NCBI GenBank assembly: GCA_964019335.1 | Contig: OZ025724.1 | Coordinates: 62,001 to 126,000, forward strand | Length of the DNA: 64,000 nt | Direction: 5' to 3' | From: Diplonema japonicum | Lineage: Eukaryota; Protista; Euglenozoa: Diplonemea | Shown here: one piece after another, positions 1 to 54,493 of the stretch | How the letters are laid out: every line of letters starts with the position of its first letter | How positions within the stretch are numbered: position 1 is the stretch's first letter | Made by a program: the position numbers and the translations under genes | The notes under the pieces: model-generated | The model's input: the letters and a program-made list of their open reading frames with translations, nothing else | Database searches by the model: none | Told to the model about the DNA's origin: nothing

Positions 1-566
1 CTACAGGGTCATGAGGTGTTAACTCTTGAATACTATCCCCAGCGTTGCCACCCCCCATCAGCGGGGTATTTTCGTCAGTACAATCGTCCTGGAGAAATCG
101 CTTATCAGTATACCGTTGTTTCCACATTCTGAGGGTTTTTTTTTTTTTTTTTTTTTTTTTTTTCCCCCCCATACTTTTCGGTCGCTTTGAAGTGTTTCCT
201 CAGTTTTGCGAGTTCGTTGTTTTTGCCCTCTTTTTTCGCTGCACCGACGGTCTCTTGTGCGTTCATCGTCTTTTTGATCTCTGCCAGATTCCTCCTTACC
301 CTGTTCTTCATCATAATCTTGGTGGTGTCGCTCAATTTCGCAGACTTGTCCTTGTCGTCCAGGATGGAGATGTCGTTGCGGACCTCCGACATGAGGTCGG
401 CGCATTGGTACTGCTTCTTCTCGTACCCTGTCATCCTGCTAGTGTCGATGTTTGACTTCGACCCCTTTGCGGCTGCTATCTCCTCGTCCTCCACCCCCAC
501 AGCGTCGGCTACCTTCCTCAGCTGTTTCATCGAATTGTGTAGCGCGTTTGACCATGGATCACCCAT
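1..566 (-). CDS. Helical/coiled-coil protein, possibly the N-terminal region of a syntaxin/Qc-SNARE; join(566..175,128..<1), runs off the window
   Basis: Removing the 46-nt intron 129-174 (GTATGG-(G)n-(A)n-CCCTCAG) removes the spurious poly-Lys tail and gives an open frame ...KATEK-MWKQRYTDKRFLQDD... to the window edge. The SNARE assignment is tentative. Confidence 0.6.
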
Positions 567-755
567 TTTATTTATTTATTTTTTTATATATATATATATT
601 TTTTTTTTGAATTTCTTTTTTTTTTTCCCTCCCCCACCCCTCGCCCGCCCTCTTTTTTTTTTTTTTTTTTTTTTTCCGGAGGGGGAACAAAAAAAAAATG
701 AAAGGAATTGCACACTTATAATTCAAAAAAAAAAAAAAAAAAAATAAGAAGAAAT

Positions 756-3447: not shown

Positions 3448-3486
3448 ATATATATGAGTTAAAGGAGGCCGGTGTTGGCGGCGCCC
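3448..3486 (-). repeat. Retroposon 3'-tail motif type I (also 29635-29676, 41427-41463, 41770-41800; degenerate ~5149-5180)
   Basis: Minus strand GGGCGCCGCCAACACCGGCCTCCTTTAACTCATATAT followed by a T-rich tract; all copies co-oriented. Confidence 0.85.
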
Positions 3487-5494: not shown

Positions 5495-5529
<35 letters not shown>

Positions 5530-5564: not shown

Positions 5565-7382
5565 AAACAAACTCATAGTAAAAGACAATCCCACTCGAGG
5601 ACAGCCTCTTGTGGTGTGAGTTCCTATCTATTAATGCTCCCCTTCTGGAGCATAGCCTTCGTTCCTATTGTCGCCTTTAAAGCTTTTCGTAGTCTCGACA
5701 CGCGCTCTTTCTTGTATGTCCCTTTCAACTCCTGTAGCTTTTGCGCTGTCTGTCTTGATGCGAAGATCGGTCTCCTGTTAAAGCCTATTGCAGCCTTGCC
5801 TCCGATCGCTGTGAGCGACTTGACCCTCTTTGCCCCGTCCGCAGGGAAGGGGCGTCTTATCCGTCTCGTTCTGCACACTGCGTTGGCTCTCTCCACCAAC
5901 AGCTTGATTCTGCGTGCCTTCCTCTGCATGTTGTAGACTCCCAGTGACTTACCGGTTGTCTCCTCAAAGTCGAGTGCAAGTTCAGCTGCCGAAACCTCCG
6001 AGTCGGTGTCGCCCATCGCAGCTTTCCCATCCATTCCAGTAGTGGTTCCCCGAATTGCTCCAGCAGTCCCACCACTGTCCCCAGCTGTGCTGTCGTCGGT
6101 ACCGGGGTCACTTTGCCTGTCACTTCCCGCTCCCATGGTAGCTTCTTGTTGCCGCCTTCTGCCTGCATCAGCCCTTCGTCCCGCTTTTCCACCACCATTG
6201 CCAGGTATCGCTGCAGCTTCTCCAGGTGTTCGAACCCGTTCCCCCTTGGTAGGATGGCATGCAGCTCGAGGCAGAGCGGCCATCCCGTCCTGTTGCGCAG
6301 TGGTTCCATCTCCTCCCGTATCAGCTCCTCTCGTGCTGGCGGGCACTCGTACAGCTGGTGGCGTAGCAGTGTTACTGTGTCCGCATGCTTGGTCGGGCAG
6401 AGGTCACATTCAAATCCCGACTCGTCTTGTCCTTCATGCGCCGCTGGCTCGTCTTGATCTTCCTCTTCTTCGCTCCGTCCCTCGGACTCGTCGTCCTCAT
6501 TCGTGGGGGGTACACACTTTGGTCCTGCTCTGGCATACGGACTTAGGTAGGGGATCCCTCCCGCAATTACCCTCTTGATACAGAAAGCTAGATGGCGATC
6601 TTTAGCTGTCCTCCAGAGGTCATTCGTTTTGGGATCTGCTCCTTCCCCGAGTCCGCTGACCGTCTTCCGTTCCGTTGCTAGTGTCGCACTCCTGGCTGCC
6701 CTTACAGTCGCCCTGAAGGCGCTTCCTCGCTTGGGCCACTCAAGTTCTGTGGCTATTTCCATCTTCTCCCAGTCCCATCCGATTCTCGGCATCCACCTGC
6801 ATATCAGATTCCCCACCGGTCCCAAGGGGGTCCTCTGTGAGCCGTACCTCTGCACTATTTGTCGCGCTCTCTGTCCAAGACCTGTCCTTTCCAGCGCGCT
6901 CGATATCACTCTTAGCGAGTGACAGATGACGTAGGACAACGGGTCATTGATGTGTCCTTTCAGCAAAACCGTATTCACCGCTGCAGGCGATCGTCCTCGG
7001 AAGTGAGGCCCCCATAGGTTGCAGGTCACTCTCGTTGTTAGCTTCTTCAGCGCCTCATCACTCGGAGGGGAGAACGGGCTGCTGTAGAGGCACGACGGCA
7101 AGACCGATGTTCCAATCAGGTATCCTTTTGTTTCGAAGGACAGGCTTGTCCCTCCCAGCCGGTCTAGCTTGTTGGCCGCTTCCGTCGCTGGCTCGTTCCA
7201 CGTCGTTCCTGTCCTGTTCGTGAACACCATCACGCCCAGTGCCTTGAACGACGTCACTGTTCTATAGGGGACTGCGACCTCTCTCCCTTTCTGTGTTACT
7301 GTCCTATCACCCAGCACTTTTGACCGGAAGCCCTTCTTCGTGCCAAACGCTACCGTTTTCTCCGAACGCTACCGTTTTCTCC
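5565..7382 (-). mobile_element. 5'-truncated non-LTR retrotransposon (family A, divergent copy)
   Basis: Post-RT region, CCHC finger (CDLC...HQLYEC) and C-terminus KAMLQKGSINR* are shared with the 59-64 kb element, as is part of the 3' UTR. An 18-nt tandem duplication (7346-7382) lies at the 5' truncation point. Confidence 0.9.
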
Positions 7383-14842: not shown

Positions 14843-14999
14843 TTTCTTTTTTTTTTGGATGCCCGCTCAGAACATAGATATGTTGCGCATTTCATGGGGT
14901 GGGGGAAAAAAAAAAAGAAAAAAAGGGTGTCTTTGAAGGGAACCTGCAGTATGTGACAGGATCGCCTAACGACAATCAACTCATCTAGTGTTTGATCCC

Positions 15000-16880
15000 T
15001 TCTGTCGTGGTAGTGCCTTAGGCCCGTCGTAGTATCTCATCAGCAGCTTACTAGCGAGTTGTTGAGGATGCAATGCGTTCGCATTTGTTCCTCTAGGATC
15101 GAGTGACCTTCGGGGACGCGAAGATCGGACGAGTGGAGTAACCAGTGACGGCATGGCTGTGGAGCCCTAGGGTGCGTAGTGAGTGTACTGACTTCATAGT
15201 TTCTGCCGGAATCAGATGATTCCCCGTCCCTTTTAGATGGATCCTTTCTAAGACGCTGAGAATCCTGCCGAGCTTTCTCGCCCAGCACGCTATGTCTTCC
15301 CCACCCATGTGGAGCCTTTCCGTTGCAATGAGGTCGACTGCTAGTTCCGCCTTAGAAACTTGCCCGCCTTCCTTGCCCCATTTTAGCATTCAGCCAGTTG
15401 AGGACAAATGGGATTAGGCCTGGGAAGTATTTCTTCTGCAGCCCATGTTCGTGGTACCAGGGGAGAGGCTTCGGGGTTAAGAGGTTCCCCGTCGGAATGG
15501 TCTATTCCAGAAATGCTGTTTCGTGTACCTGACCTGCTTGTCGGCGTGCAGGTTCTCGAGCTTGCCTGCCACTTCTGCTAGCATCAGGTGGAGCTCCTTG
15601 ACTCTCGATAGGCTGATGTCCAAGTCCGAGGTAATGATGCCGTGTACGCGGGTGCAGATTGGCCAGTTGATGTGTTCTTGCACTAGCCATTCGCGGTCGG
15701 CGTTGGCCGTTCTAAAACCGGCGTGTGCCGGGCAGTGCCAAATTGTATGCAGCAGGAGGTTGCTGGTCCCGCCCCTAATGTCGAAGGGTGTGTCACACCC
15801 AAGGCATTTCATTCGCGTGCCATCCATGTCGCCGTAGGCTCTAGGGTGCAGTGGAAGGATGGCGCCTGTAACGGCACAAAGGATTCTCCTTGCTTTCTGC
15901 GGGTTGGTAATCGCCACCTCGTTGTGTAGGACGTTCGTCTTCATCTCGTCCACTCCTATCTCGATTCCTTTGAAAGTGTCCCACTCTTCGGCGAGCTCGC
16001 CCCGCAGTTTTTCTTTCAACCGCGCTCTGACCTCGTGTTTCAGGTGTGGCAACTCTTTAATAAAGTCCTTCCATCTCGTCCCGATGTCCCGTAGCCATAT
16101 TTCCGCATTACCAAATGGCCCCTTCGAAAGCGACGGCGTTCCATCTCGCTCCTTTGCGTACTTGTAAGTTTCCCAGGGACTTGTTCGACTGTCGTGTGCA
16201 CAGGCGACCTAGGGTCGAAATGGCTTTATAGACCACCGAAGAGTAAGGGTCTAGGGTTTGTAGGCAATCCTTAGCAGCGCACTGGCGGAGGTTGCGTGCG
16301 CCCCAGATGCATGACGTGATCTGCTTCTTCAGTTTCACCAGCCAAGAGTCTGGGATTGGGTCGAAGAGGACGCCGTAGAAGGCGGACGGTAGGATGTTCT
16401 CTGCGATGACCTGTACCTTGCGGTTGTGGTCTCGTTGCTGCGAGGCGCTCAATTTCTGCAAGTGCCTTGCGGGCTCTCGTGTTCTCTCTTCTACAAGGCT
16501 GGAAGTAGACCAGTACCCCCAGGATCTGCAGTTTGCAGGACGTGTCGAAGGTCTCCCCGTGTAGCTGTACGTTGCCGCAGTACTTGGGTTTCGTTCCAAA
16601 CGACGTAGTTTTCTTCGGGTGGATAGCCATCCCTGTGAGCTTGCAGAGGGTGCCAAGCAGGTTAACGGAGCGTTGCACCGCGGCCTCCGAGGTAGCTGAC
16701 GTGAAGTTTAGGTCGTCTGCATACGACACAGGATGGGCGTTTCTAGGGTTCGCCGTGCATTTCTTGGTGAATATAGCGAGGATCGCGTTGATGAAGACCG
16801 GTGATATTGAACAACCCTGGAGAATCCCATTCGTGGTTCTGAACGGTGCGCCCACCCCCATGGGGAAACGTAACCGACGG
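15000..16880 (-). mobile_element. Degenerate 5'-truncated non-LTR retrotransposon (family B, related to A)
   Basis: Frameshifted RT fragments NGILQGCSISP and SYADD; CLGC...HTIWHC finger; VSKAELAVDL resembles family A VSAVELAIDF. Ends approximate. Confidence 0.85.
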
Positions 16881-16936
16881 ATTAAAAAAAAAAACTATGC
16901 AAGATGGTGGAAAAAAAAAGAGGGGGGGGGTGGCAT

Positions 16937-18864: not shown

Positions 18865-19358
18865 TTTCTTTTTTTTTTTTTTTTCTTCTCTCCCCCCACT
18901 TTTTTTTCTCTTCTTTTTCCACTAGCTGAATGAAAAAAAAAATAAGAAATCTCAAGGAGGGGACAGGGGGGGGGAGTTTGAGAAAATCTTTCAAAATTGG
19001 CTAGAAAGAAAAAAAAACCCCCCCCTCCCCCTCTGTCTCTTTACACTTGCAGCGCCACCCAAACTCGATTCCAGAACATGAAATAACACGAAGCACCACC
19101 AACGCCCTTAGAAAAGCGGTAGTAATTGACTACAGAGATATAGTATGTGAAACAAAAAGTAAATACGATAAAGCCTTATATGAGACACATGTGTCCGATT
19201 CTGTCTCCGGTAAGCCAACTCCTTTACCAGAACCCGAACTTCAGAACTCGCTTGAGGGGAGGTGTCGTTACCCACCTTGGACTTGAGCCTATGTCAAAAG
19301 TCTTGCTGCCCCCTTAAAAAAAAAGCAAAAAGAGAGACACCGAACAATGTCGTTCTCT

Positions 19359-28449: not shown

Positions 28450-28535
28450 TTAAATCTGAAGATGGTAGTAAAGGGATTTGGCAGGTGTTGACACAGCTAT
28501 GCGACAGAATTCACTTTTCTTCACCTTCTCTCTTT

Positions 28536-29066: not shown

Positions 29067-29816
29067 TTTTAGTTTAATTTTTCTAATTTTTTTCCGGCTG
29101 TTGTTTGTTAGAGCTGTTTTGGGGGGAAAGTCAAAAAAAGAAAAAGTCGCTTCATTTGCTTTCGATACTCGCAAAACAAACAAAAAAGTAACTTTTTGCA
29201 AAAAAATGAGTTGAAAAGGAGATCTTTGCGAGCGCACCTTTTGTTCTCATCCACTACCTGAAACAAAAACAAAAAAAAACAAAAAAAAGAATGCAGCCCA
29301 ATAAACCCGTAGCACCTGATGACGGTTTTACAGGGATTTCTTATGAGAGTGATATGAATCGGTGTCAAAAAAAAAATGCTCTTGGACCATAGTCTCAAAA
29401 GAATGTTCCAGCGATTCCGAGAGGCAAGGTAATAAAAAAGAAAAGGGGTTGCAGTATGTAAAAAGAGTTGCATAATAGTTCTTTGTGCACAGCCGGGGGT
29501 TTAACCTGTAGAGGGATAAGCCCAACATGCTACCACTACTCTTTTCTTTTTTTTTTTTTATAGCAAAAATACAATTCATTATCAAAATATATATTGTTTT
29601 TCCTTATTCAAAGCAAAATTTAAAAAAAAAAAAAATATATATATATGAGTTAAAGGAGGCCGGTGTTGGCGGCGCCTCCCCAAAAAAAAAAGGGGGTTAG
29701 CAGGGAGAAAAAAAAAAAAAAAAGAGATGAGATAAAGGAGGTTCCTGTTTTGGAACGTCCCCCTTGTCTCTACTTATCTACCCCTTTCTCCCTTCTGGGG
29801 CCTCGGCCTTTCTTAA

Positions 29817-29930
29817 AAAAAAACTAGTTTGGCGCTCCATTTGTTTGTGCGCACGAGCGGAATTTTACCTAATAAAATAGCTCATTACGCTGCCATCAAC
29901 TAGTTTTTAGTCTCGACAATAATGTTGTTA
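29817..29930. repeat. ~115-bp direct repeat, copy 1 (copy 2 at 35223-35336), flanking the NACHT gene
   Basis: aaaactagtttggcgctccatttgtttgtgcgcacg...gctgccatcaactagtttttagtctcgacaataat..tgttaa, near-identical in both copies. Confidence 0.9.
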
Positions 29931-29988
29931 AAACAAAAAAGAGAGAGAAAGAAAAAAAATGTGTTGTCCCCCCACCGGATATGCAACA

Positions 29989-35090: not shown

Positions 35091-35222
35091 TTCTTTTTTG
35101 TTTTTTTTTTGTTTTTTTTTCTCCTCCACTCCCCCCTTTTTTTTTCTTCTTTTTCTTTTTGTTCGTTTTGTATCGTCGTTCGGGCAAAGAAACTACAATG
35201 AATGGCACAGAAAAACAAAAAA

Positions 35223-35336
35223 AAAAAACTAGTTTGGCGCTCCATTTGTTTGTGCGCACGAACGGAATTTTACCTAATAAAATAGCTCATTACGCTGCCA
35301 TCAACTAGTTTTTAGTCTCGACAATAATATTGTTAA
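35223..35336. repeat. ~115-bp direct repeat, copy 2; its terminal TTAA is the piggyBac target site
   Basis: Matches 29817-29930. Confidence 0.9.
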
Positions 35337-37083
35337 CCCCTAAAGGCCCGGAGCCTATCTACGGTATCCCCCCATTTTCGTTGTTGCTTTAAATACTCAA
35401 AAAAAGGGCAGCATGCAACCATAGGAAGGTGCAAGGAAAGGGTAAACGGTACTCCAGATTCAGATGAGAACACTTAACTATGTGTGTAAGAGGGGGGTTG
35501 AGGGGGTACCTTTTATGTCCGATTTTGGGGGGTCTTGTCGTGGGGGGTCCGTGGAGTTATGGCTGGGCTAAAAAGGGCAGCATTCAGCCCTATTTGGTGC
35601 CCTGAACTCTAGGATTGAGGTCAGTCTGGAGACTTTTGGGGGCTGTGGGATGAAAAAAGCAACTTGTGAGTTTTTCCAGCTGAGGTAGCATGCAAGGGTA
35701 AAAAACACGTTTTGCATAAGGGGGTTTTGCAACAGGGGCACCACATTTGCACCTTCTTCCCGCACCCAGGAACAGCACAGAGCACCCTCCTCACCTTCGT
35801 TCCGTTCATCATGGTCTCGGAGGTGTGATTTAAGGTCAAATCGAGACGTTTTGGGTATTTCTGAGTGAGGGAATCCTCATTGCTAGCGTGTTTGCGCTTG
35901 GGGGTCGGTGACGGTGTTGTCGGGGTGTGTGCTATCGGTTTTTGGGGCATGGGTGAGAAGCTTGCCAACAAGTTCTTCTTTGAAGCTCGGGAAGCCATAA
36001 TTTTTGCCACATTCCCTGCTCTTCTTCCAGATTATGGAGGAGTTGGCAACACAGCTTTCGACCATGGTCCACTTCCGGGTTTTCATATGCCGAACTCCAG
36101 TCCCCTGGAGCTGGTCTTGCCGGTCAGGGGTCGACAGCAAACCCTTAGGAGTCGACAGTACGCATGACTAGGTCCTGTGTTGTGGACTTCTTGCTGAAAA
36201 TGTTGAAATTCGCCAGGTAACCGTTTTATGAGTCACATGTAGCGATTACCTTGATGCCCACCGAGTTGCTTTTTCGTGGTGCCATGACTTTTGTTGTTGT
36301 CGGGATAACACTGTCGTCAACAGACAACCACTTGCCAGGGGTCCGCACAGTCCTACACCGGTTGACAATGATGTCAAGAAACCTGCACATGAGGTGCAGT
36401 TTCAGGCCTTCCAAATGTTTTCCAGGTTGTCAAAGGTGAGGTAGCGCTGTATGTCAACGAATCGGTTTGCTCATTTTCTTAAAAGCCGGATGGTTAAATT
36501 AGAATTTGTTGTCCAGTAGCTCTTCATGTTCGGTGCCGAGCGTAACCCCATTAACAGGACCAACCCAAGCCAAATTTTGTACTCTAGGATGGAAAGATTC
36601 AGATTCCGCTGTTTTTTTGAATCGAAACGACCGTTCGTGGAAGAAACTATGAGCTCAAGTACCGCGTGTGCAAAAAAAAAAGATTAAAAACACCCTCCTC
36701 ATTGGCCGCTTCACCTAGAGGTGTCCTGAGCCCACCTTTTCACGGAAATGATATGTTTTGGGCCTTTGGGAGTATTTCTCCCACCCAAGCATCGTTTCCG
36801 GCCCCTCTTTGACCGCCTCATCGTCTTTTTCTTCTTTATCTGACCAGTCGGGGGAGACTCACGTTTTCGCTGCTATTTTGACCATCTGATTTCATTTTAA
36901 GCCGACCCTGCCGGTTTCAATTGAAACAAAACCTTTAACGCAAAATGTAGTTCCAAGACAAAATAAACCGCGCAACAATGCCATATTTTGAAGTCCAGGG
37001 GCCGTGTTCAAAAAAAAGTACTTAGCGAAAAAGCAAATTTTGAAATAAGGACAAAAATGTCCGCGCGGGCCTTTAGGGGTTAA
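35333..37083 (-). mobile_element. Degenerate piggyBac transposon (second family)
   Basis: TTAA at 35333-36 and 37080-83; perfect 14-bp TIR cccctaaaggcccg / cgggcctttagggg; transposase fragments PGKWLSVDDSVIP and GIKVIATCDS; Cys-rich tail CAVPGC...WCPCCKTPLCKTCF..H. Confidence 0.92.
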
Positions 37084-37217
37084 ATTTTGCTTTAAAAAAG
37101 AAAAAAAAAATAAGCCAAAAATACAAAAGAAAAAAAAAGAAGAAAAAAAAAAGGGATATACGAAAAGAGGAACTCTCTTGTTATCGCAAAAAAAAGAATA
37201 CATAATATCAGCAATGC

Positions 37218-38126
37218 TCACAGAACGTCATACCCGGCATAGAGGGGGAAGGGCCGTGTGTCTCCGGTGTGCAAAGGTGGGTAGTCGTCTCGAAGGGGCT
37301 CGTAAACCGACTTGAGCGCGACCTCAACCTTCTCCAAGCCCTCCTCGACACGTTCGTAGTCTCTGGAGAGGAATACGTCAAAGCCCTGCAGGCTCTGCAG
37401 CTGGTCCCGGCTTCTGACAAGGTCCGCCTTGTGTAGCTCGAGACGCTCTTTCATCTTTTTATATTTTTCATAGTCACGGGAGTACGCCTCGCTAGCGATG
37501 TCAACACGTGCCTGCTGGCGCTGGACCAGCTCATCCTCGAAGTCCTCTGCCGACTTGGTGTCCAGTCTCAACGGTGGCTGAGGGGGCGGCTGCACCCCTT
37601 TCTTATGGTACATTACCGTCTCGCGAGGGTTTTCAAGATCTACTTCACCCCTGCTGCATTTTGCGTTAAAGTACGCCCAGTAAGGGTCAGGACCCCGAGG
37701 GGCTTTGGGAACGCTTTTCACCTTCTTTCGTGGTTCGGTTACAGTTGACAGCGTGTACTGAGAGGACACAAAGGATGCCGATGTTAGGTATTCTTCATCT
37801 TCCTCTTCTGTTAGAAAAGTAGATGCCAAGCTTCCTCTGTAGCTTGGGGGCTTCCCGGCTTCAACCCATTTCACGCCGTTTCGTGTGGCGAGGTGTTTCA
37901 GTCGTTTTGCTAGTTCTCTCCCGGGGAGTACGCCACCGCCTCCGTTCTCGTCTTTAACCTCTTTGCTGACGTGGTCGTAGGTAAGCTCCTTGCATTCGCC
38001 GAGTCTCTTCGCCTCTGGGTCGCCGGGCTTCTTTAGATACACCTGAAGCCTCCCTTTCGCAGTAGGGTCGTGTAAGAAGGTGACTTGATTCGCACCTTTT
38101 CTGAAGGTCACGACGTCTGTCGCCAT
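37218..38126 (-). CDS. Hypothetical protein (302 aa) with C-terminal coiled coil
   Basis: Intact long ORF with normal composition, co-oriented with neighbours. Confidence 0.7.
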   Translation of the reverse strand: MATDVVTFRKGANQVTFLHDPTAKGRLQVYLKKPGDPEAKRLGECKELTYDHVSKEVKDENGGGGVLPGRELAKRLKHLATRNGVKWVEAGKPPSYRGSLASTFLTEEEDEEYLTSASFVSSQYTLSTVTEPRKKVKSVPKAPRGPDPYWAYFNAKCSRGEVDLENPRETVMYHKKGVQPPPQPPLRLDTKSAEDFEDELVQRQQARVDIASEAYSRDYEKYKKMKERLELHKADLVRSRDQLQSLQGFDVFLSRDYERVEEGLEKVEVALKSVYEPLRDDYPPLHTGDTRPFPLYAGYDVL

Positions 38127-38280
38127 TCCCCCTCCCCCTCCCCCTCCCCCCTTCTTGCTTTTTCTTTTCTTTTAAATTTTTAGACGAAGAAAAAAAAAAA
38201 CGAGGAAGAAGAAAAAAAAACCTTTTTCCATGTGAGTGAATAAAAAGGGAGGGGGGGGGGGTTACAAAAAGTAGTAGGAC

Positions 38281-38578
38281 CTATGCTTCTCCTGCCGACG
38301 TACTTTCCTCGGCTGCTACTGTTGCCGCAGCTGTCTTTTGGGCCGCTGTGTGTATTTTTTGATTCCCCCCCCCCATCGTTGCACACCTTGAAGTACACTC
38401 TCGGGCCATTGTACACCTAAAGGGTACACGATATCAAGGATAAAGAGAGCCATAGACTATTTTTTTTTTTTTGTTCTTATTTTTGCACACACGACCCTTG
38501 GCATACCGCTAGCCAAATTCCAATAAGTGCCCAAATCCACCAGGGCCAGTCGTCCTTCTTATCTTGCTTGCCGGACAT
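38281..38578 (-). CDS. 68-aa single-TM microprotein; join(38578..38507,38456..38387,38345..38281)
   Basis: Two GT-AG mini-introns (50, 41 nt) give MSGKQDKKDDWPWWIWALIGIWLASMALFILDIVYPLGVQWPESVLQAAQKTAAATVAAEESTSAGEA*. Confidence 0.7.
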
Positions 38579-38793
38579 TTTCTTTTCTCTTTTTTTTTTT
38601 TTTTTTGTTTCCCCCTCGGCTCTCTGTGGCAAACTGAAAAATAAACTCAAAAAAAAAAAAAGAAGAAAAATTCACTAACTTTTGTTTGTCCACTGCAAAC
38701 TCTGATTTTTTTTCTTGGTTTCTTTTAAGTAACATTGGCAGTATCTATCAATGTTGTGCTATAATATTTCTCTGTCTCCCCTTCTTTTAAATC

Positions 38794-39091
38794 TTATTTT
38801 GCAGGATTTGCCGGCACCACCAGTGTCTTTAACTTTTCAGTAAACGCATCGTTAGGGATCTATGTGTGGGTGTGTTTTGGGTTTTCTTTTCTTTCTCCCC
38901 TAGCATACCGCCCAAGAATCTATCCACATTGCTCTCTCAGCTCCATCGGGCTGAGCTGCATTCTGTTGGTGTACATTCTTCTTTCTGTTTCTTTTCCTTC
39001 CCCTCCATACCTTCCCCCACACCTCGGGGTCGAAGTCATCAAAATCATCTTCCTCAATGAATGACAAGGATAAGGTATTCTGCTCCGACAT
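38794..39091 (-). CDS. SEM1: Sem1/DSS1 family small acidic protein; join(39091..39011,38962..38909,38859..38794), 66 aa
   Basis: Two mini-introns (48, 49 nt). The product MSEQNTLSLSFIEEDDFDDFDPEVWGK...MWIDSWAIPNDAFTEKLK has the EEDDxFxxF / W / WxxxW / DxFxxxL pattern. Confidence 0.8.
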
Positions 39092-39203
39092 TTCTTTTTT
39101 CCTCCCCCCGCCCGTGCTGTGAATAAAAAAGCTGAGACGCAAATATTTAAAAAAGAAATAAATAAAAAAAAGAAAAGAAAGCTACGACCTATATCTAAAA
39201 AGG

Positions 39204-41327
39204 TCAGGAGACGACGCAGCAGCCTGCCACATTTCTTTTCGTGGTGTTCTTTGTCGCAGGTTCCCAGCACCTTGCAGGGTTTTGTTCAGGTAGCTTGGCG
39301 GTCACCACCACCACCTGTGCTTCGCAATGTTCCTGTACCACGGCGTCGTCTCTGTTCCCGGGATCCTCCTCGTTGAGCAGCTGCATCCCTTCAGCGTTAT
39401 TCCGAGCGGCTATTGGGGTCCCTGAAAGAAACCACTTTCCAACAGCTGTGACTTTGCGAAGAGGGCTGAGGTCAACGCTCTCCAAAGAAATGCAACTGTT
39501 GAAAAAACTGTCCCCAACAAACTGCACGTTCTGCAAGGGGCTCATATCCACAGAAGTCAATGATTCACAATTGTCGAGGAAGCTATCGCCGACTGAGGTG
39601 GCGTTGCGAAGAAGGCTGAGATCAACGGCTTCCAAAAGCTTGCAGTTGAAGAGAAAGTAATCGCCGACAGACTCCACACTCTGAGACTCTTGCTTGTTCA
39701 AAGTAACCCACCGTAGCGAGTCGCAGCCACTCATGAAGGAGAAGTTCACTCTCGTCACATTCTTAAGTGAGCTCAGATCAACAGAAGTCAATGTTTCACA
39801 CCTGGATAAAAAACTGTGCCCAAGGGCACTGACATTACAAAGGGGACCGAGGTCAACTGTTTTCAAAGACTTGCAGCTGCTGAGAAATGAACTCCCGATG
39901 GACTGAACCATTTGCAAGGGACTCAAATCCACAAAAGTCAATGATTCACAGCGACTGAGAAAGCCATGGCCGAGTGCGGTCACATTGCGAAGCGGGGTGA
40001 GGTCTACAGTTGTTAGGGAGGTGCATTTATTGAGAAAATTGTCGCCGACATGCACGCTAAGCGAAGCAACGAGGTCCTCTTTCTGAAGGCCCTGTTCATC
40101 AACACAAGAAGTCATTGATTTGCAGTGGTTTTCGCCGCCGATCGTTGTGTTGTTCTGAAGGAAACAGAGATTCACGGACGTGAGAGAGTTGCACTCGTAG
40201 AGAAAATAGTCCCCAACCGACCGAACACCATGGAGGGCTGTCAAGTCCAAGGTGACAACTGATGAGCAAGATCCTAAAAAATAGCTGTCAATAGTCATGA
40301 CATTGAACAGCTGGCTCAAATCCACAAACTTCAACGACACACAAGCATTCATGAAACTGCAACCCACAGCGGATATACGCTCAAGGGGGCTCAGATCCAC
40401 AGATGTCAATGATCCGCATTTTGAGAGAAAGCTGTCGCCGACGGTGGTGACGTTGCGAAGGGGGCTCAGATCAACGGTTTTCAGAGACTTGCAGCTGTGG
40501 AGAAAATAATTCCCGACCGACTGGACGTTCTGCAAGGGGCTGAGATCCACGGAGGCCAATGACTCACAGCCGTCGAGGAAATAATCTCCCGTTGTTTTGA
40601 GGTTTTCGAGGAACCCGAGGTCGATGCTCGAAAGAGATTTGCAGTTGTGGAGAAGACAGCTCCCAACCGACTGAGCGTTTTCAAAAGACGTCACGTTAAC
40701 AGAAGTCAATGATGCACAGCCAGTGAGGAACTTGCTACCGATTGCCGTGAGGTTCCTGAAGACGCAGAATAGGGATGTTAGCGAGCTGCTTTCACTGAGA
40801 AAGCAGTCCCCAATGGACTGAACGCCCCGCATGGCCGCCAGCTCCAAGGTGACGAGTGAGGAGCCAGATAAAAAAGAATCCCCTATAGATGTTGCACCGT
40901 CGCTCAGGGTCCACACCTTGAGGTGACGAAGATTTGAGGGAAATTCGTTTGTGAGGCTACTATCGAGGCAGGTCAGTCCTGCAACATCCACCTCAAGAAG
41001 AAGCTCAGGGTTCTCCTCAAGAAACCCTTTGATCTCCTCTTTTCGCCTCGGGAGCTCCTCGTGACTGACACTAAGTGCTCTGTTACAGGTGCACAAGAGA
41101 AGCTCGCTCCCCTGCCCCATCCCCAGCTGCTGTATCTCCTGTTCCCCACCGCCAGATGTCTCATTATCCAAGACCACACCTTCGAATTGTAAGAGGAACC
41201 ACCCTACCTCCATTGCAGAAACCTCAGCCGCCTTCCTGTACAGGTCCTTCACCCTGTCAAGCCCAGACAGCTCCACCTCGTGCACCACATCCTCGTCGAC
41301 AGTCCTGATCAACACTGCGAGGCTCAT
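39204..41327 (-). CDS. Ubiquitin-like - BspA-type LRR - CaaX protein (paralog 1, 707 aa)
   Basis: N-terminal ~80-aa beta-grasp-like domain, about 20 repeats of ~23 aa (CxSLTSVDLSPLxNVxxxGxxFL), C-terminal GCCVVS. Confidence 0.85.
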   Translation of the reverse strand: MSLAVLIRTVDEDVVHEVELSGLDRVKDLYRKAAEVSAMEVGWFLLQFEGVVLDNETSGGGEQEIQQLGMGQGSELLLCTCNRALSVSHEELPRRKEEIKGFLEENPELLLEVDVAGLTCLDSSLTNEFPSNLRHLKVWTLSDGATSIGDSFLSGSSLVTLELAAMRGVQSIGDCFLSESSSLTSLFCVFRNLTAIGSKFLTGCASLTSVNVTSFENAQSVGSCLLHNCKSLSSIDLGFLENLKTTGDYFLDGCESLASVDLSPLQNVQSVGNYFLHSCKSLKTVDLSPLRNVTTVGDSFLSKCGSLTSVDLSPLERISAVGCSFMNACVSLKFVDLSQLFNVMTIDSYFLGSCSSVVTLDLTALHGVRSVGDYFLYECNSLTSVNLCFLQNNTTIGGENHCKSMTSCVDEQGLQKEDLVASLSVHVGDNFLNKCTSLTTVDLTPLRNVTALGHGFLSRCESLTFVDLSPLQMVQSIGSSFLSSCKSLKTVDLGPLCNVSALGHSFLSRCETLTSVDLSSLKNVTRVNFSFMSGCDSLRWVTLNKQESQSVESVGDYFLFNCKLLEAVDLSLLRNATSVGDSFLDNCESLTSVDMSPLQNVQFVGDSFFNSCISLESVDLSPLRKVTAVGKWFLSGTPIAARNNAEGMQLLNEEDPGNRDDAVVQEHCEAQVVVVTAKLPEQNPARCWEPATKNTTKRNVAGCCVVS

Positions 41328-41426
41328 GTTTATATGGTTCTTTGTCCTTTTTCGAATATTGCAGAGAGTGACATTCTTTTTTGGTTCCCCCCTCCCCCCC
41401 CGGCCGCTGTTATGTGCAAAATAAAA

Positions 41427-41623
41427 ATATATGAGTTAAAGGAGGCCGGTGTTGGCGGCGCCCTGCACAAGAACTGTCTACTTATTTACAGGGGGCGCAC
41501 CGCGACCGAGTTGTAGCTTCTGCTGCGTTCCGCGCCGTGTCCTTACTTGCGTGCAGTGTACAGCTCAACAGCAAACAACACACTCTGATGTTCTTCTTAT
41601 ATTTTCATGTTATCCCCACCACC
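41427..41623 (-). mobile_element. ~200-bp SINE-like element ending in the type-I tail; related copies at ~5149-5295, ~22550-22595 and ~42575-42845
   Basis: Shared blocks tgtagcttctgctgcgttccgcgccgtgtcctta and tcaacagc(g/a)aacaacac..ctgatgt.cttct.tatattt.cat. Confidence 0.65.
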
Positions 41624-43911
41624 TGAAAAGAAAGAATAACTCGAAAAGGGGGAGGGGGGGGTACAGGTAAGAGAAGCGCTCCGGTAACATCATCAAGAAC
41701 GCAGTTAGAAAGAAAGGTACTTTATTAAGAGAAGAAGGAAAGGAAAAGAAAAACTAAGAGAAACAAAAAATATATGAGTTAAAGGAGGCTGGTGTTGGCG
41801 TCCTGTGAAAATCGCCCCACAAAAAAGAAAAGCTAGGAAGGAAAAAAGAACTCGTTAAATCTCACGGGGTGCTCATTATTCAGAAAAAAAGAAACAAGAG
41901 AAGGTGGCTGAAATATTGGGGAAGACCCGACGTCAGGCGTTTTACTATCTGTATAGGGAAATAAATAAATTGGGGGGTCACTCCAACACAAAAAGAGGAA
42001 GGAAAAAAAAACACTGTAAAACGAATAAAGTCGGGCAGAAAACTCCCGGACACCAAAAAAACCCGGACGGGATTTTTCTGGGAAGAATTCTTTTTACATG
42101 GGAGGGTAGAGCTCCTGCTTTTTTTTGTTCCATACCACGTCTGCATGGAAGAGCATTATTCCTTGTGCAGACTCGTATACCCAAGGCACGGGCACGTTGA
42201 GCAGCTAGCTTGTGAGGTTTCTTTTTTTTTTTTTTTTTTGACTTTTTTCTACTTCGTCGATCTTTTTTTCCAAACCGTCCGTTCACCATATTTCCCATTT
42301 TTTTGTGTCGATCTCCCGCCCCTTCATACTGCTCCTTCCAATCGATATTACGGAGTAAGCGCCTAGCACGCCAGGGAACGCACCAAATAGATGTTATCTC
42401 CTCCGAACTGTCTTGTCCGGTCGCAGCTGAAAATTACTTTTTCCTGCCATTTCTTTTTCTCCCTCCTCCTTCTTCGAGAAGGAAAAAGCTAAGAGAAACA
42501 AAAAGATGAGTGAAAAAAATAGGGCTTTGATTGCAACACTAAGTGTCGTTAAGCGTGCAACGAAGCACGAACTACCTACTTGATTACAGTTGGCGCAACT
42601 CGGCCGAGCTGTAGCTTCTGCTGCGTTCCGCGCCGTGTCCTTAATGCGTGCGGTGTGCAACTCAACCCTAGCCGGGCGCCCTGGGTAACCAAGATTCGGC
42701 GCTCATGCGTCTCAGTTTGCCTGTTCGTCACCCTGAGCATATGCAATACGTTCTTCCACTCGGGCGCTACCGGTGATGACCGACGAGGAGGTCAACAGCG
42801 AACAACACATCTGATGTACTTCTTATATTTCCATGCTATCCCAGGGCTTTTGATCTTTTAACGTCAAGGTTAGGGATTTGGGACAAGCACGCCGTCTTAT
42901 GCGTTTCCCTGTCGCAAACTGCCCCGCAGCCAATTTACACGGGAAAAACAGAGGAAATACCCCGGGTCCCACACCCCCCAAAAGGCTGGAGTTTAACAGC
43001 TTCGAAATCTCACTGGGCCACCCAAGAAACGCTTCGGCTCTGGGTAGAAGATCTGTTTCTCTCCTTTGCTACAACCTCATCGAGTCGTCGCAGCCCAAGA
43101 CTTGCCGAGGCCGAGGCCAGGCGCACTGCCAAGGCTGCAAAGGCAGCAAACAAGACGGCCGGACAGGTAGGACGCTGCTTGCCTTTTCCTCGCCCCCTTA
43201 TTTAGTTTTATTGGTCGGGAAAAGTACTCTCCGGACGCTAGTAGGAGCCATTGAATTATATTTTTGCCATTTTTGAGACTCTTGCAACATAAACATACGT
43301 TTTTCCAGACAGAGGGGACAGTGCGTAGGACAGGCTTGGTACCCCCTTAGCGGAAGATAAAATCACCAGATGTTTCGGCGGTCCGGACATTTTATCATCC
43401 GATGATTTTTTGTTTTACAGTAACTCGAACTGCCAAAAGAGGAACTGGCGTGCCGGCGTGGAGGGCAGCGAGAGGACAAACATGTCCTCTGCCCTTTAGC
43501 GCTACACCTCGCACAGTGCACCGCAGTGTCACCGTGCGAGGTGTCGCACTCCTCGAAGACGCAGTCCGCGAGGTGAGGGGCACGAGTGCTTCCCGATGGG
43601 TACTCGAGGTCCGCGTATTGGACCAAATCATCCCAGTCGAGTGCCGTCATATTTTGGTTTGTACGTGCCGGGTAAAAACCTGGAGAAGTTTGTCAACCCG
43701 AAACACGTTGCCAACGTTCCCCTTTTGTTTATACAAGTCAAAGACTCGTTCTTGCAAAAAAGTGTTGACATTCTTTTTTCCGGACGAGGGTACCTGAATG
43801 ATGAATGTGGAGAAGAATGAAAAAAGAAAGATAACAAAGAATGGGGCACAGCACACTGCACAGGGGAGGGTGACCGTAACCCAAAATGCCTTCCTTTGCC
43901 CTGTAAAGTCA

Positions 43912-45291
43912 TCAGCAAACGATGCAACACTCTTTACTTTTACAGGTTGCTTGCTTCACAGGAGGACCCCAGGACCTTGTTGGTATTCTTGGTCGCTCTT
44001 CCTGTTGTGCTGGTTGCTCCTCCTGTTCCTGTTGATGTCCCCGTAGTCTGAGGAATTCCACAACATCTTTCCTGTGTTCCACTGGGGTCCCTGAAAGAAA
44101 ACAGCTGCCGACGGTGGTGACATTGCGTAGGGGGTTGAGATCCACAGAAGTCAATGATTTACAGCCATGGAGAAAATTATCACCGATATTTGTGATGTTC
44201 TGCAAAGGACCCAGATCAACAGTTTTCAAAGAGCTGCAGTTGTAGAGAAAATCTTTGCCAACTAACTGAACGTTCCGCAAGGGGCTCAGATCAACAGAAG
44301 TCAATGATTCACAGCCATTGAGAAAACTGTATTCGAACCGTGTGATGTTCTGGATCAACAGTCGTTAGAGCTTTGCAGTTGAAGAGAAAATAGTCCACAC
44401 TGGATGCAGAAGTACAGGTGTTGCGCAGGGGGCTCAGATCGATAAATCTTAACGAAACACAATAAAACATGAGACCCCAGTGGTCCATACTGGTCACATT
44501 CTGCAAGGGACTCAAATCCACAGAAGTCAATGATTCACAGCCACTGAGAAAATCACTTCCGACGGTGGTGACATTGCCAAAGGGGCTCAGATCAACTGTC
44601 TTCAAAGAGCTGCAATCTCGGAGAAACTCGCGCCCAATGGACTCAACATTCTGCAAAGGACTCAAATCCACAGAAGTCAACGATGTGCAGTTATAGAGAA
44701 AAGAAGAGCCGACGGTGGTGACATTGCCAAAGGGGCTCAGATCAACATTCGTAAGAGACTTGCAATTCTTGAGAAAACAGTCCCCAACGGACTGAAGACC
44801 CTGCAAGGTCGACAGGTCCAAGGTGACGAGTGAGGAGCCAGACAAAAAGGAGTCCCCAATAGAGGTTGCACCGTCGCTCAGGGTCCACACCTTGAGGTGA
44901 CGAAGCTTTGAGGGAAGCTTGCTTGTGAGTCCATCATCAAGACAGTCCAGACCAGTGACATCCACTGAAAGAAGAAGCTCAGGATTCTCCCCAAGATGTC
45001 TTTCAACATCCTCTTTCAGATGCGAGAGGTCCACATGACTGTTTTATAAATACTACACAAGAGAAGCTCGCTCCCCTGCCCCATCCCCAGCTGCTGTATC
45101 TCCTGTTCCCCACCGCCAGATGTCTCATTATCCAAGACCACACCTTCGAATTGTAAGTGGAATCTCCCCACCTCCACTGCAGAAGCCTCAGCCGCCTTCC
45201 TGTACAGGTCCTTCACCCTGTCAAGCCCAGACAGCTCCACCTCGTGCACCACATCCTCGTCGACAGTCCTGATCAACACTGCGAGGCTCAT
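43912..45291 (-). pseudogene. Ubl-LRR-CaaX paralog 2, disrupted
   Basis: Collinear with paralog 3 but with ~10-nt (near 45040) and ~11-nt (near 44352) deletions that cause frameshifts; ends in ECCIVC. Confidence 0.85.
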
Positions 45292-46480: not shown

Positions 46481-47340
46481 ATATATATGAGTTTAAGGAA
46501 GTCTTTGTGAGACGCCCCCTTGTTCTCATCCTCTACCTGCACCTATCCCCTTTCAGCAGCGGTTTTTTTTTTTTTTTTTTTTTTTTTAAATTCCACTTCC
46601 TTTTCGACTTGCTAAGGCCGTGCCCACTAGGTGGGTTGGAAGTGTCTCGAGACGCTCACCCGGTTGCCCGAGTACTCATGACCGTACTGGTGTTCTCTAC
46701 CCACAAGCTTTGCTGGTTGTTTGGCATTTTTTTTTTTTTTTTTGAAGGCTACTGAGGGTGCCGGTCCTCAGCATCTTCTTTTTTTTTTTTTTTTTTTTCA
46801 AATATATTGGGTTTGAGGGATGTCGAGTGTTTCGCCCTGGCCGCAGGGCATTTCAGGAGGAGGTGTTCGAGCGTTCTCTCTGTTGCGGGTCCGCATCTTT
46901 CGCAAATGCGTTGCTTGAAGTCTTTCTTCAACAGCTCGTGATGCCCGGACTTCAGCTGATTGATCATCACCTCTTCTTTTCTGCTGAGCCCTTCCATCTT
47001 TTTGGGTGCTTCTGTCTTCCCTGCCCACTTGTAGTATGTCCTCTCCTTCTTTAAACCAGCAATTATGTCTTTTCTCTGTCTGTTGCTGGTGGTTCTTCGC
47101 TGCGCCCATGCTGATCTTTTGGGTTGCCTCTTCTTCCCTGCCTTTTTCCGCCAGCTCATCTGCTTTCTCGTTCCCTTCTAGTCCGCAGTGGCCTGGGACG
47201 TAGCAGCATGTGAGGTAGTTCCCATTTTTCGTCAGCGCGTGTATGTCTCGCCACACTCCAGCCACCATGTCCTCCTGCTGCCTTGCTGGGCCCTGTTTCA
47301 GTTTCAGCAAGGTTTCTCCTCCTAACAATATCCGGATCAA
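46481..47340 (-). mobile_element. 3' fragment of an RNase H-encoding (ingi/I-like) non-LTR retrotransposon ending in the type-II tail
   Basis: RNase H C-terminus YVPGHCGLEGNEKADELA, then CERC...TLEHLLLKC, then the tail at 46481-46562. Confidence 0.8.
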
Positions 47341-48023: not shown

Positions 48024-48092
48024 ATATATATGAGTTAAAAGAAGTCTTTGTGAGACGCCCCCTTGTTCTCATCTTCTACCTACACCTATCCC
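48024..48092 (-). repeat. Retroposon 3'-tail motif type II (also 46481-46562, 52738-52807, 56222-56291; degenerate 29207-29260)
   Basis: Minus strand ...GGTAG(A/T)(A/G)GATGAGAACAAGGGGGCGTCTCACAAAGACTTC..TAACTCATATAT. Confidence 0.85.
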
Positions 48093-50300: not shown

Positions 50301-50938
50301 TGCACGTTCTTCAGCACCACGTCACAATGGGGACAAATGCCTTCCCGTCCTGTCCATGCTACCTTAACCGACCGTCGGTTTGCTCCGTCGCACCACTGCC
50401 CGCGCTTCGCGCTCTTGGACCGCTATTCGACGAGCAGAGATGGTTCTAGCGCACGATCTGTGTTGGTCTTCACCAGCTTGGTGCCGTGGCCAAGGTTCAC
50501 GTTTGGGCATACGCCTCTCTTTCGCTTCTTCCTGTAGTGGCTCGCGAGGGGCGGGGCCGGTGCTGGGGCTGAGTGCGGGGCCAGAGCTCGTCGCCGTCGT
50601 GGGTGGTGAGGCATGCCAGTTCCAGCTCCTCCGTCCGTGGCGCAGGTTCTGTCTTTACCGATGGTGGGGTCGAGATCGGGGCCTCGATGTCGTCGCCGGT
50701 CAGGTCTATGACCTCCTTCACGTTTCCCTGCACCTCATCGGTTCCCTGTGGCACAGGTCCCGCCTCCTTGTGGGGGAGGTTCCGTTGTAGGTGTTGACTC
50801 CGCGGGTGGTGGCTCCAACATGTACATGTACCCCACTCTGCAGAAGCCTCAGCCTTCGGGTACCCTGTCAAGCCCAGACAGCTCCACCTCGTGCACCATA
50901 TTCTCGTCGACGGTCCTGATCAACACTGCGAGGCTCAT
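50301..50938 (-). pseudogene. Chimeric pseudogene: Ubl N-terminus of the LRR family joined to an unrelated VIDLTGDD / Cys-rich region
   Basis: MSLAVLIRTVDENMVHEVELSGLDRV from the ATG at 50938, then frameshifted EVIDLTGDD and EGICPHCDVVLK. Confidence 0.6.
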
Positions 50939-53498
50939 GGTTTCTTTTGGTTTATTACTTTTGTTGATTCTTTTTTTTGTATTTTTAGGTTTTTACAGAC
51001 GAAATAAATAAATTGGGGGGGGGGGGGGGGGGGGGGCAGGGTCACTGGGCGGGACTGAACAAGAAAAGCGATAAGAGGGAGAGAGGGAGGGGGTTTGCCT
51101 TCCTCCAATACAGAAAAGAAGAAAGAAAAAAAAAGAATAAAAAAAGAAAAAAGGAAAAATGATGAAGTGTCAGCCACAGGTTTGCATAACGTGTGGTTGC
51201 ATGTCACACTTTTGATGAGTGTCACATAGATAAAAACTGGCAAATAGAGAGGAAAATAAAGGGACTGAATGGAATTGGGTTAGCTTGGGCGGGGTGCCAT
51301 CAATCGGGGGTTTGAAAAAAGAAATTTATTTAAAGAAAATGAAATTCATTCTTTTTCTTGTTGTTGATGCGTGGCGAACGACTAAGAACAGGGGAAGAAA
51401 AACAACGAGGAAAGCTGGGGTATTTCTTTTTATTTTTTTATTTTTTTTTTTTTATATATAACTCCAGTCAGATTTTTAAGTGGGTATTTCACTTTATTTT
51501 CACGGCAGATTTCAGGCTTGTTTTAGGAGGAAAACAGGGGCAGGAATGAAAATTACTTTATGAGTGAATATAAAGTACTAGCCCTATTTTCACTGCACAG
51601 CAAGGGTTTGGGGTCGCAAACACGAAAAGAAATCACCCAAGTGGTTACCACATAGGCCCCTTGTTTTGGAAACCCCGGTTCGAATCTGGGAATCTCACTT
51701 TTTACGTCACTCAAGGATCTGGGCCTCTCACCAGAAGGTGGCAAGCCAGCAGCGTCACCGCGTAGTGGGGCGACCTCAGCAACCCAGGCAGCAGCCCCAC
51801 AGGTCCAGACCGAGTACCCGCACCACACAGGATAAGCCTTGGCAATCAATATCAACGTCAACCATAAGCACCGGTAAAATTTGTAACTTGTAACTTTGTA
51901 ATACCCCACACTTTCAAATCCAACTAACGTTAAATATAACAGATTTAGTGAAAATAGATCCGATTTTCATTTGTGGTGGCCTGTTCAACTCGCTTCGCTC
52001 GTGAAGTCATATACCCACTCGTTAAACCACTGCCACCGCGCGTGAAAATCATACGATCTTTTTTTTCACTAAATAAATAGTTATTTCTTTGTTTGTACAA
52101 CATAAAAAAAAAAAAAAAAACATCTTGCCAGCTTTCCCCTTTTTTTGTTTAGACAAGTCAAAGACTCGTTCTGTCGCAAGAAGAAGGTGGACGTTGAAAG
52201 AGAGAAATAAAAAAAAGAAGAATGTCTTTAGTTGCCTCTAAAAATTATTGGAAAAAAAAAAAAGAAAAAGGAACCTGTATATGCGACAGGATAAATGCAA
52301 AATGAACAAAATGAAACGAAACTTCTTTGGGGGTAAAAGAGGGGAGTGGCGGGGGGAGAAAAAAGAGCTGCCGCTTTTGCTGTATATGCTAAGTATTGTG
52401 CAGAAAGGTTAAAAGCCTTAACAAAGCTGCCTCGATTCCCTTCCTTTTTTTCCTCTTTTCTTTTTGTTTTAATTAAAGTATAACTGCTTTCATAAATGGA
52501 ATTAGGCATGCTTCCGGCCTAGCGATGCTAAAAAAAAAAAACTTCCAGCCGTAGTAGGGACTGTAAAGATAAGAATTTCGCAAGTTTTCTGCCCTCCGCC
52601 TTTTCAGTCAGAGGGTGGGAGGAAAACAAATAGGGTAAGGTCATTTCGCCATTTTTGTCCGTTTCGTCAATTCTTTTTGGTTTTACAGTGACAATGTATA
52701 GAAATGAAAGTAAACGAAAAAAAAAAAAAAAAAAAATTATGAGTTAAGGGGGGTCGTTGTGAGACGCCCCCCTTGTTCTCATCCACTGCACCTACCCCTT
52801 TCAGCAGGTTTTTCCAGCTTGGACACTTTTCTACGTCTTCAGAAGCCCATGCAGTCTCCTGTCGTCCGCTTGATCCCCCGCCTTCCCCCTTATAGGGTTT
52901 TTCTAGTCACGTTCTCGAAACAAAAAAGAATAAGAAAAAAAAGAAGAAAAACAAAGAATTTTTTTTTTTCTTTTTTGCTGTTGTGTTGTTACATTATATA
53001 TGTGCGATGGCGAAAGTCGGGTTTTTTTTTTTTTTTTTTTCAAATCACACATAAAAGATCAGAAGCAACTGCCGCACATGGCCAGCCCTTCATCAACAGC
53101 AACAGAGAACAGTGTCCGCACGTCTTGCGTATCGAAACCAGTGAGCGAGGCAACCTTCTCCCGCACTGCCGTCATCGGAAACACAACCTGCAGACCTATG
53201 TACTGCTGTTCCATTTTTTCCCCCCTTTCTTCTTTTTTTTTATTTATAAATAAAAGGTGTTTGGCTGTGGTTGTTTAGATATTTTACCCTACCCCTATTT
53301 GTACCTCCCCACAAGAACAGAAAAAAAATAAAATAAAAAAAGAAAGAGGGAGTGGGGGGGGGGGGGGGGGGGGGGTGCTCACTATTCAAAGAAGAAAATT
53401 CAAACACTAATCTGTCAACCCTTCCACAATTTGTTAGAGTCATGCTAGGGCGGCGGTTCGACTCGAGAACAAAAAAAAAAAAAAAAAAAAAGGCCTTG

Positions 53499-54493
53499 TC
53501 ATGCCGTCTTCAGTTTTGCAGCCTTATCCCATTTCGCCTTAGCTATTGCAATGCGTGTCAGGTTGGCTTTCGAGTCGATTATGAACAGAAAAACAGCGCA
53601 AAACCCAGAGAAGCAAGCTTCATAAGAAACAGGATGGACAAGGATCAAACGAAAAGGGATGTACAGAAAACAAGCACTCTGCCACGTCCATGAGAACAGT
53701 GCCGATGTAAATATGAGAACAGACTGAAACAACGGATGTTTCGGGGTAGCGTGGAACAAGAGAAGGAATGCATAGTTGAGCGAAGCAATGGAGGCACCGA
53801 GAAGTAGGGACATAGCACAGGCTTGCATAAGCGGGCTGAGGTTTCCTCCCCCGAATGCTGGATCCGTACTTAAAATGCAAAACACCATCACCAGGAAGTG
53901 GTGGAGGTAATCGTCCCAAAACAAGGTGGGGAGATATGCCAGTTCCCACACCATGAGCGCAGCAAGCCAAACCCTTACTAAATAGAAGGATCTGACCGCA
54001 CGGACGTCGGGCGAAGAAATGTCACATTCTGGTCCCAACAGAGAGCCTGTAAGGGCCTGAAACTCCAGCCCGTTGTCCCAGTCGAGAAAATTCCACACCT
54101 CCCACATGCCAACACAGCAGACACCTCTTAGCAACAGGGCTACGACCATCATCACAATTTTTCGTTTTTTAGAATAGGCTTGCATTTTGTCGCCATTTCC
54201 CAAGTCGTTCCATCCTGGGAACACATTTGGAAGCACTGTACTGTGCAGTGCAATGGTGGCAAAGCACACATTAAGCGAAGCGGTGAGAAACACGCTTAGA
54301 CCACTTCCTGCACAACACGCTGGGTTTTTTTTTTTTTTTTTTTTTTTATTCACAATATGGTCATACAGTCCGAGCTCAGGGCATGGCCTTGTATCGGCTC
54401 TGGTATGTACTTGATATCTATAAACATCGCTGTCATGGGCAGCACAACACCTGAGAGGAGGACAACTGCCGTGCCACACAGCAGGCCAAGCAT
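53499..54493 (-). CDS. Multi-pass membrane protein, TLC-domain-like; join(54493..54367,54319..53499)
   Basis: A 47-nt GTATGA...(A)n CCCAG intron joins a hydrophobic first exon in frame; several TMs and a YLHH motif. Confidence 0.7.

Follow-up and report, generated by a model that had tools for sequence, protein, structure and literature searches.

How do organisms that combine cis-splicing with spliced leader (SL) trans-splicing keep the leader off the acceptors inside their genes, and how does a spliceosome that has U2AF select an AG without a pyrimidine tract? Both questions are raised by a set of very short introns in a 64,000-nt stretch of Diplonema japonicum contig OZ025724.1 (positions 62,001 to 126,000; hereafter the window). 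We read these as canonical GT-AG introns in which an A/C-rich 3' end replaces the pyrimidine tract, and from which U tracts would be kept out as invitations to SL addition; to this explanation as a whole, introns and reason for U-avoidance together, we assign a probability of roughly 0.6.

Introns of the window and evidence for their removal

An earlier note on this DNA had listed 11 minus-strand GT-AG introns of 38-58 nt, eight of them with a GTATG donor. Positions, sizes and minus-strand GT and AG ends were confirmed for all 11, and the donors are GTATG (n = 8), GTGTG (n = 1), GTGCG (n = 1) and GTAGC (n = 1). With the addition of segment 19444-19479, all 12 introns begin with GT and end with AG; the GTATG donor is found in 9/12 and a CAG 3' end in 10/12, and all are shorter than 60 nt (range 36-58 nt, median 46.5 nt). 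The introns and their host genes are:

129-174, minus strand: intron of 46 nt (GTATG..TCAG); its host gene, for a syntaxin-like membrane-anchored coiled-coil protein, has its ATG at 566 and extends past the window edge
19444-19479, minus strand: extra intron of 36 nt, in frame (GTATG..TCAG), found by profile scan in gene 19359-21140
28536-29066, minus strand: parvulin (PPIC-type PPIase) gene of four exons and 126 aa, identical to protein P0010; Pfam Rotamase_3, 2.4e-15
28654-28694, minus strand: parvulin intron 3, 41 nt (GTATG..ACAG), from P0010
28781-28831, minus strand: parvulin intron 2, 51 nt (GTGCG..ACAG), from P0010
28934-28991, minus strand: parvulin intron 1, 58 nt (GTAGC..GCAG), from P0010
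29067-29160, minus strand: U tract, followed by a predicted SL acceptor (..AAAACAG, 47 nt 5' of the ATG) and an A-rich presumptive 5' UTR, read from the sequence
29989-35090, minus strand: ART-NACHT-pentapeptide-WD40 gene of three exons and 1672 aa, from Pfam and P0011
31334-31378, minus strand: intron of 45 nt (GTATG..ACAG) in the ART-NACHT-pentapeptide-WD40 gene, from P0011
31537-31574, minus strand: C/A-rich intron of 38 nt (GTATG..ACAG) in the same gene, from P0011
38346-38386, minus strand: predicted intron of 41 nt (GTGTG..ACAG) in the small gene 38281-38578 (68 aa), from profile and frame
38457-38506, minus strand: predicted intron of 50 nt (GTATG..ATAG) in gene 38281-38578, from profile and frame
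38860-38908, minus strand: predicted intron of 49 nt (GTATG..ATAG) in the small gene 38794-39091 (66 aa), from profile and frame
38963-39010, minus strand: predicted intron of 48 nt (GTATG..ACAG) from the sequence profile; in frame, with no stop codon
54320-54366, minus strand: predicted intron of 47 nt (GTATG..CCAG); the host gene, 53499-54493, encodes a hydrophobic protein of 315 aa

The syntaxin-like label of the host of 129-174 is our own reading of the protein and comes without Pfam support. Segment 19444-19479 is the one member of the set that was chosen neither by frame repair nor by eye, as the profile alone flagged it. The long ORFs with Pfam families lie almost all on the minus strand, as in a one-strand gene cluster. 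Such clusters are reported for P. papillatum, where the spliced leader is present on essentially every mRNA (PMC10161547).

Splicing was judged from EukProt proteins, which are predicted from Trinity-derived transcript assemblies. Excision yielded exact matches to these proteins for six of the 11 introns of the earlier list. The three-intron parvulin model (29066-28536) equals P0010 over 126/126 aa, and the last 1050 aa of the two-intron model at 31334-31378 and 31537-31574 equal D. japonicum P0011 with 0 differences (1050/1050); these identities to EP01064_Diplonema_japonicum place the window in that species. Excising 129-174 gives a model that corresponds to the first 173 aa of P0008. Proteins of D. 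ambulator align ungapped over the same junctions: P0009, the orthologue of P0008, over 129-174, and P0012 over both junctions of the ART-NACHT-WD40 gene. For four introns (the three of parvulin and 129-174), GT..AG is the sole canonical placement among the equivalent slid cuts. The twelfth segment, 19444-19479, is also spliced, since D. japonicum P0164 lacks exactly its 12 codons. Seven of the 12 introns are absent from mature mRNA with exact boundaries, whereas the other five (starting at 38346, 38457, 38860, 38963 and 54320) are predictions from profile or frame. The claim that the listed segments are introns is supported to this extent, and the profile contributed 19444-19479 besides. A metagenome scan with P0008 gave 53 pattern hits and no relative.

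The five predicted introns could instead be retained low-complexity coding or UTR sequence. They have no transcript match, one is in frame, and two of the host ORFs are only 66-68 aa long and without a Pfam family. The earlier statement that each intron restores or cleans up a frame fails for that in-frame, stop-free segment of 48 nt (38963-39010) and holds for four of the five, whose excision extends the ORF. Removal of 38457-38506 lengthens an ORF of 33 aa and completes a hydrophobic stretch, and that of 54320-54366 extends an ORF from 47 to 315 aa; at the latter, three other GT-AG pairs also yield ORFs of more than 200 aa, and GTATG is present only in the chosen pair of the four. The five match the seven confirmed introns in donor, length and composition, and the profile that they share correctly predicted one new intron. 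Retention of these segments is very improbable.

A chance origin of the introns was rejected because a window scan for GTATG..YAG segments that span 35-65 nt and contain at most 0.15 T and at least 0.4 A found eight on the sense strand and none on the opposite strand. Contigs of two runs (X5 and X7) carry the unspliced sequence over 28261-29531 and 29913-33384, with no differing letters or gaps, and the segments are therefore present in the DNA; the kind of these runs is unrecorded and one may be the window's own source. Other comparisons were uninformative on splicing. Over 27000-41500, two runs (X1 and X2) were slightly divergent and of low depth, with zero depth at the introns near 31.3-31.6 kb, and no contig joint fell at an intron among the 15 listed of 85 from four runs. 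An exact look-up of seven unspliced ORFs matched two; the five misses say nothing, since the choice of start matters.

Base composition of introns, look-alikes and gene flanks

Over the 514 bases of the 11 introns first listed, T amounts to about 11.7% and A to about 50.8%, with 8.9% T in the intron bodies (range 2-19%). The T share of the introns (about 12%) compares with 22.6% in coding sequence and 30% in intergenic windows. T runs reach a maximum of 1-3 per intron and pyrimidine runs one of 2-5, and the last 20 nt contain 61% A and 9% T; the usual pyrimidine tract before the AG is missing from these introns. A body T of at most 0.19 was found in 12/12 introns relative to 88/397 intergenic 40-nt windows (P = 2.7e-8; Fisher test), and T runs of at least 5 in 0/12 relative to 105/397 (P = 0.04, weakly significant), in a sample of one window and 12 introns, 11 of them picked by eye. 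The introns had been described as nearly free of U, which their T content of about 12% makes a slight overstatement, while the U-poor character and the lack of a pyrimidine tract stand. A 3' splice site without such a tract, also claimed beforehand, is seen here and likewise in the 10,131 RNA-seq-supported introns of the same species (PMC12621601).

The predicted folding energies of the introns are weak (0 to -7.4 kcal/mol). Because of this and of their GT-AG ends, we rejected the possibility that they are non-canonical structured introns. The non-canonical introns of hemistasiid diplonemids and euglenids are of similar size in Artemidia (37 nt) but are non-GT-AG with strongly paired ends, whereas the window introns are GT-AG and weakly structured.

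As a negative control we used 33 donor-like pentamers from coding stretches in which, according to the EukProt proteins, no splicing takes place. A YAG lies 36-58 nt on from 18 of the 33, which gives 25 donor/YAG pairs; these are non-independent, owing to a duplicated gene and overlapping pairs. Eighteen of the 25 unspliced pairs are as U-poor as true introns, and we rejected the view that low U defines the intron. A share of A+C of at least 0.7 in the last 20 nt was found in 11/12 introns but only 4/25 unspliced pairs. These counts indicate that low U is insufficient and that the A/C-rich 3' end discriminates; judging from sequence, this end looks like a positive cue for splicing. We also rejected U-rich introns at the frameshifts near 23600 (LVIVD gene) and 45040 (LRR gene), which by eye look like small deletions.

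The composition of the introns is also that of the sequence just upstream of start codons. The 25 nt before the ATG of 21 genes contain 0.539 A and 0.13 T, relative to 0.505 and 0.118 in introns, and the two are not distinguishable (P = 0.87 for A and P = 0.90 for T; Mann-Whitney test). The T content rises to 0.37-0.39 at 51-100 nt upstream of the ATG and is 0.38-0.40 downstream of stop codons. The 11 introns contain none of the 63 sense T runs of at least 8 and five of the 52 sense A runs; one T run and 15 A runs lie within 60 nt of an ATG. A runs are also present in 76/397 intergenic windows. These T-run and composition counts indicate that, from the predicted leader site as far as the stop codon, noncoding sequence lacks U tracts, in introns and 5' UTRs alike. 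The contrast that the earlier note had drawn between introns and the U tracts upstream of genes is borne out by the same counts.

A U-rich 15-mer was found within 250 nt upstream of 17/21 genes, and in two of the four genes without one the frame is broken or duplicated. In five of these 17 genes, the first AG past the U-rich stretch, the predicted acceptor, directly follows an A run, and several predicted SL acceptors end in ACAG, as introns do. Predicted trans acceptors and intron acceptors may therefore overlap in site type. No SL RNA or U snRNA was found in the window (Rfam, 0 matches).

Possible reasons for the scarcity of U

It is nearly certain that we are dealing with short canonical GT-AG introns that have an A/C-rich 3' end in place of the pyrimidine tract and are likely cut by the ordinary U2-type spliceosome. 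A strong GTATG-type donor paired with a YAG 36-58 nt away would define the intron across a short span, and the unstructured A/C-rich stretch would serve both as a positive 3' cue and as a source of branch adenosines. GUAUG is the donor of the SL RNA. In trypanosomes, pyrimidine tracts fix both trans-splice and poly(A) sites (PMC6597758). U tracts in D. japonicum likely do the same, marking trans-splice acceptors and setting the upstream poly(A) site, a role that we borrow from trypanosomes because the SL sites of the window are predictions. Selection would then likely purge U tracts from the noncoding sequence between SL acceptor and stop codon, and introns and 5' UTRs would as a consequence resemble each other.

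By this analogy, U depletion would represent avoidance of the SL addition or cleavage that an intragenic U tract would invite, a proposal for which we consider the odds about even. Several observations count against it: A-rich introns are not needed for cis- and trans-splicing to coexist, as E. gracilis uses one C-rich tract (PMC11170887), C-rich tracts are also reported in other diplonemids (PMC12621601), and the predicted acceptors that share an A run or ACAG with introns blur the split. The general idea of a cis-versus-trans code, which has a precedent in Schistosoma, appears plausible.

The main rival to U-avoidance is competition between donors, in which a strong GTATG about 45 nt upstream may be sufficient to commit an acceptor to cis-splicing. 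The A-richness would then result incidentally from homopolymer slippage, low structure or the supply of branch adenosines and would do nothing to keep the leader away. This is consistent with the GTATG start of 9/12 introns, all shorter than 60 nt, with their weak folding, with the A runs that are common across noncoding DNA (76/397 intergenic windows) and with the weak first donors that accompany trans-splicing in Ciona (PMC11155486). It leaves unexplained why introns and presumptive 5' UTRs lack U runs, although no homopolymer is more frequent in intergenic DNA (63 vs 52 A runs). Trypanosomatid cis-introns are much longer than those of D. japonicum, which weakens the comparison. Despite highly conserved donors, they still give rise to SL-exon2 (PMC11613528), which also argues against donors acting alone. 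On balance we consider donor competition an unlikely explanation, if a serious one.

A stronger form of the code would split the 3' signal itself. The U tract would serve only SL addition and the coupled polyadenylation, whereas the A/C element, recognized positively through a modified U2AF or a different factor, would serve only to splice introns of 36-58 nt in cis. If true, no natural example of a sequence code that sorts acceptors between cis and trans would be cleaner, but we find it doubtful. Rather improbable is a two-code system in which cis-splicing relies on recognition of the A/C-rich 3' end by a specialized A/C-binding factor or a modified U2AF65, and trans-splicing on the usual U-binding mode. 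The A+C content of the last 20 nt does tell introns and unspliced look-alikes apart more clearly than low U does, and CA/CAC-rich motifs were found with MEME in several diplonemids (PMC12621601). However, U2AF1/2 are reported present in D. japonicum (PMC12621601), and the ACAG end is often common to predicted trans acceptors too.

Relation to published introns and other systems

Thakur et al. (2025, RNA) described a D. japonicum set of 10,131 introns with RNA-seq support, GT-AG in 98% of cases, with a median length of 41 nt, a (G)/GTATG donor, a CAG end and A as the most abundant base in the position of the pyrimidine tract (PMC12621601). They checked eight introns by RT-PCR and reported U1 snRNA, U2AF1/2 and U2-type snRNAs in this species (PMC12621601). 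Heterologous diplonemid introns were removed inefficiently when placed in T. brucei or P. papillatum (PMC12621601). The window introns are alike in GT-AG ends, GTATG, CAG and A in place of pyrimidines (median of 46.5 vs 41 nt), the motif YTRAY is rare in both (1/11 and 13.9%, respectively), and among the features compared none differed between the two sets. This class of introns is already known for D. japonicum (PMC12621601); we rejected its novelty on that ground, and sighting it again adds little. The new part is that introns are set side by side with 5' UTRs and the U tracts upstream, in one window and with predicted leader sites. The main text of PMC12621601 contains no comparison of introns with trans-splice acceptors ("spliced leader" and "outron", 0 occurrences each), and we found no comparison of cis and trans acceptors in diplonemids in the literature searched, which did not extend to the supplements of PMC12621601 and PMC10161547.

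The principle that short, U-poor acceptors are used in cis and long, U-rich ones in trans is already reported for Schistosoma mansoni, in which the acceptors of trans-spliced introns are longer and U-richer (PMC5832876). In S. mansoni as in Ciona (PMC11155486), shorter and U-poorer introns are spliced in cis, and longer, U-richer or weak-donor ones in trans. These differences are graded, whereas the cis tract of D. japonicum is wholly replaced by A/C. The cis-introns of trypanosomatids (PAP1, DBP2B and RBP20; Kostygov et al. 2024) resemble those of the window as euglenozoan GT-AG introns in trans-spliced pre-mRNAs, with no conserved branch motif in the account given there, but they are limited to three genes, always have pyrimidine tracts and have acceptors that also take the SL, with SL-exon2 as by-product (PMC11613528). 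Euglena gracilis is another euglenozoan with cis- and trans-splicing and U-poor acceptors; it differs by its C-rich tract, its long introns and one pattern at introns and outrons, with no split code in the published description (PMC11170887). Among these systems D. japonicum represents an extreme contrast, with A/C-rich introns and 5' UTRs against U-rich upstream regions. Deposited poly(A) RNA-seq data for the species are reported in a genome note (PMC13598402). The intron profile is also useful for gene annotation, as it caught the in-frame intron 19444-19479 that ORF reading had missed.

Sequence upstream of start codons and a short dispersed repeat

Most ATGs of the window typically follow an A run that ends in AAAAGAAA or a similar sequence (for example at 14843-14860, 18865-18890 and 38579-38610), and a G run often lies ahead of this A run.

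The intergenic regions of the window also carry a short dispersed repeat, which falls into two families of approximately 40 and 60 nt that both end in a common TTTAACTCATAT-like motif. All seven copies of this motif are found on the sense strand, for a chance expectation of 0.13 in the window.

Copies of the TTTAACTCATAT-like repeat motif
3452-3464, minus
29643-29655, minus
41429-41441, minus
41772-41784, minus
46485-46497, minus
48028-48040, minus
56224-56236, minus

The TTTAACTCATAT-like end is usually followed by a U-rich stretch, and the copy at 41429 lies a short way ahead of a predicted spliced-leader acceptor. The summed depth of sequencing-run contigs is very high where copies of the repeat sit, which hints that it is repeated genome-wide. 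These sequences could be the relic of a SINE/SIDER-like element, or could act in mRNA processing.

Gene families and duplicated sequences

Several other genes and duplications were identified.

Genes and duplicated blocks
39204-41374, 43912-45291, 56590-58202 and 50840-50938, BspA-type leucine-rich-repeat family
22642-24997, surface-protein-like LVIVD-repeat gene
29989-35090, ART-family, NACHT, pentapeptide and WD40 protein (1672 aa)
29810-29930 and 35220-35335, 116-nt intergenic block pair flanking the NACHT gene
19359-21140 and 27052-28449, duplicated gene pair

The BspA-type family, which has no introns in the window, comprises two long copies, another that carries a frameshift, and a fragment from the 5' end; in two copies, a 14-codon upstream ORF precedes the shared start. 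The LVIVD-repeat gene contains a frameshift near 23600, which lacks an intron-like appearance.

The NACHT protein has relatives in D. ambulator (~50%) and P. papillatum (36%), and we read its domain arrangement as similar to that of NLR-like proteins of immunity or signalling. The two flanking intergenic blocks are 98% identical.

The paired genes share ~1.2 kb of identical sequence. In the transcript-derived D. japonicum protein P0164, the N-terminus is that of the 28449 copy and the C-terminus that of the 21140 copy; this protein is most likely a chimera of transcript assembly.

Mobile elements

A non-LTR retroelement encoding an endonuclease and a reverse transcriptase, fragments related to it and, on the plus strand, part of a DDE_Tnp_1_7 transposase jointly occupy 59118-64000, 54600-56200, 5624-7368, 15040-16894 and 25415-26176.
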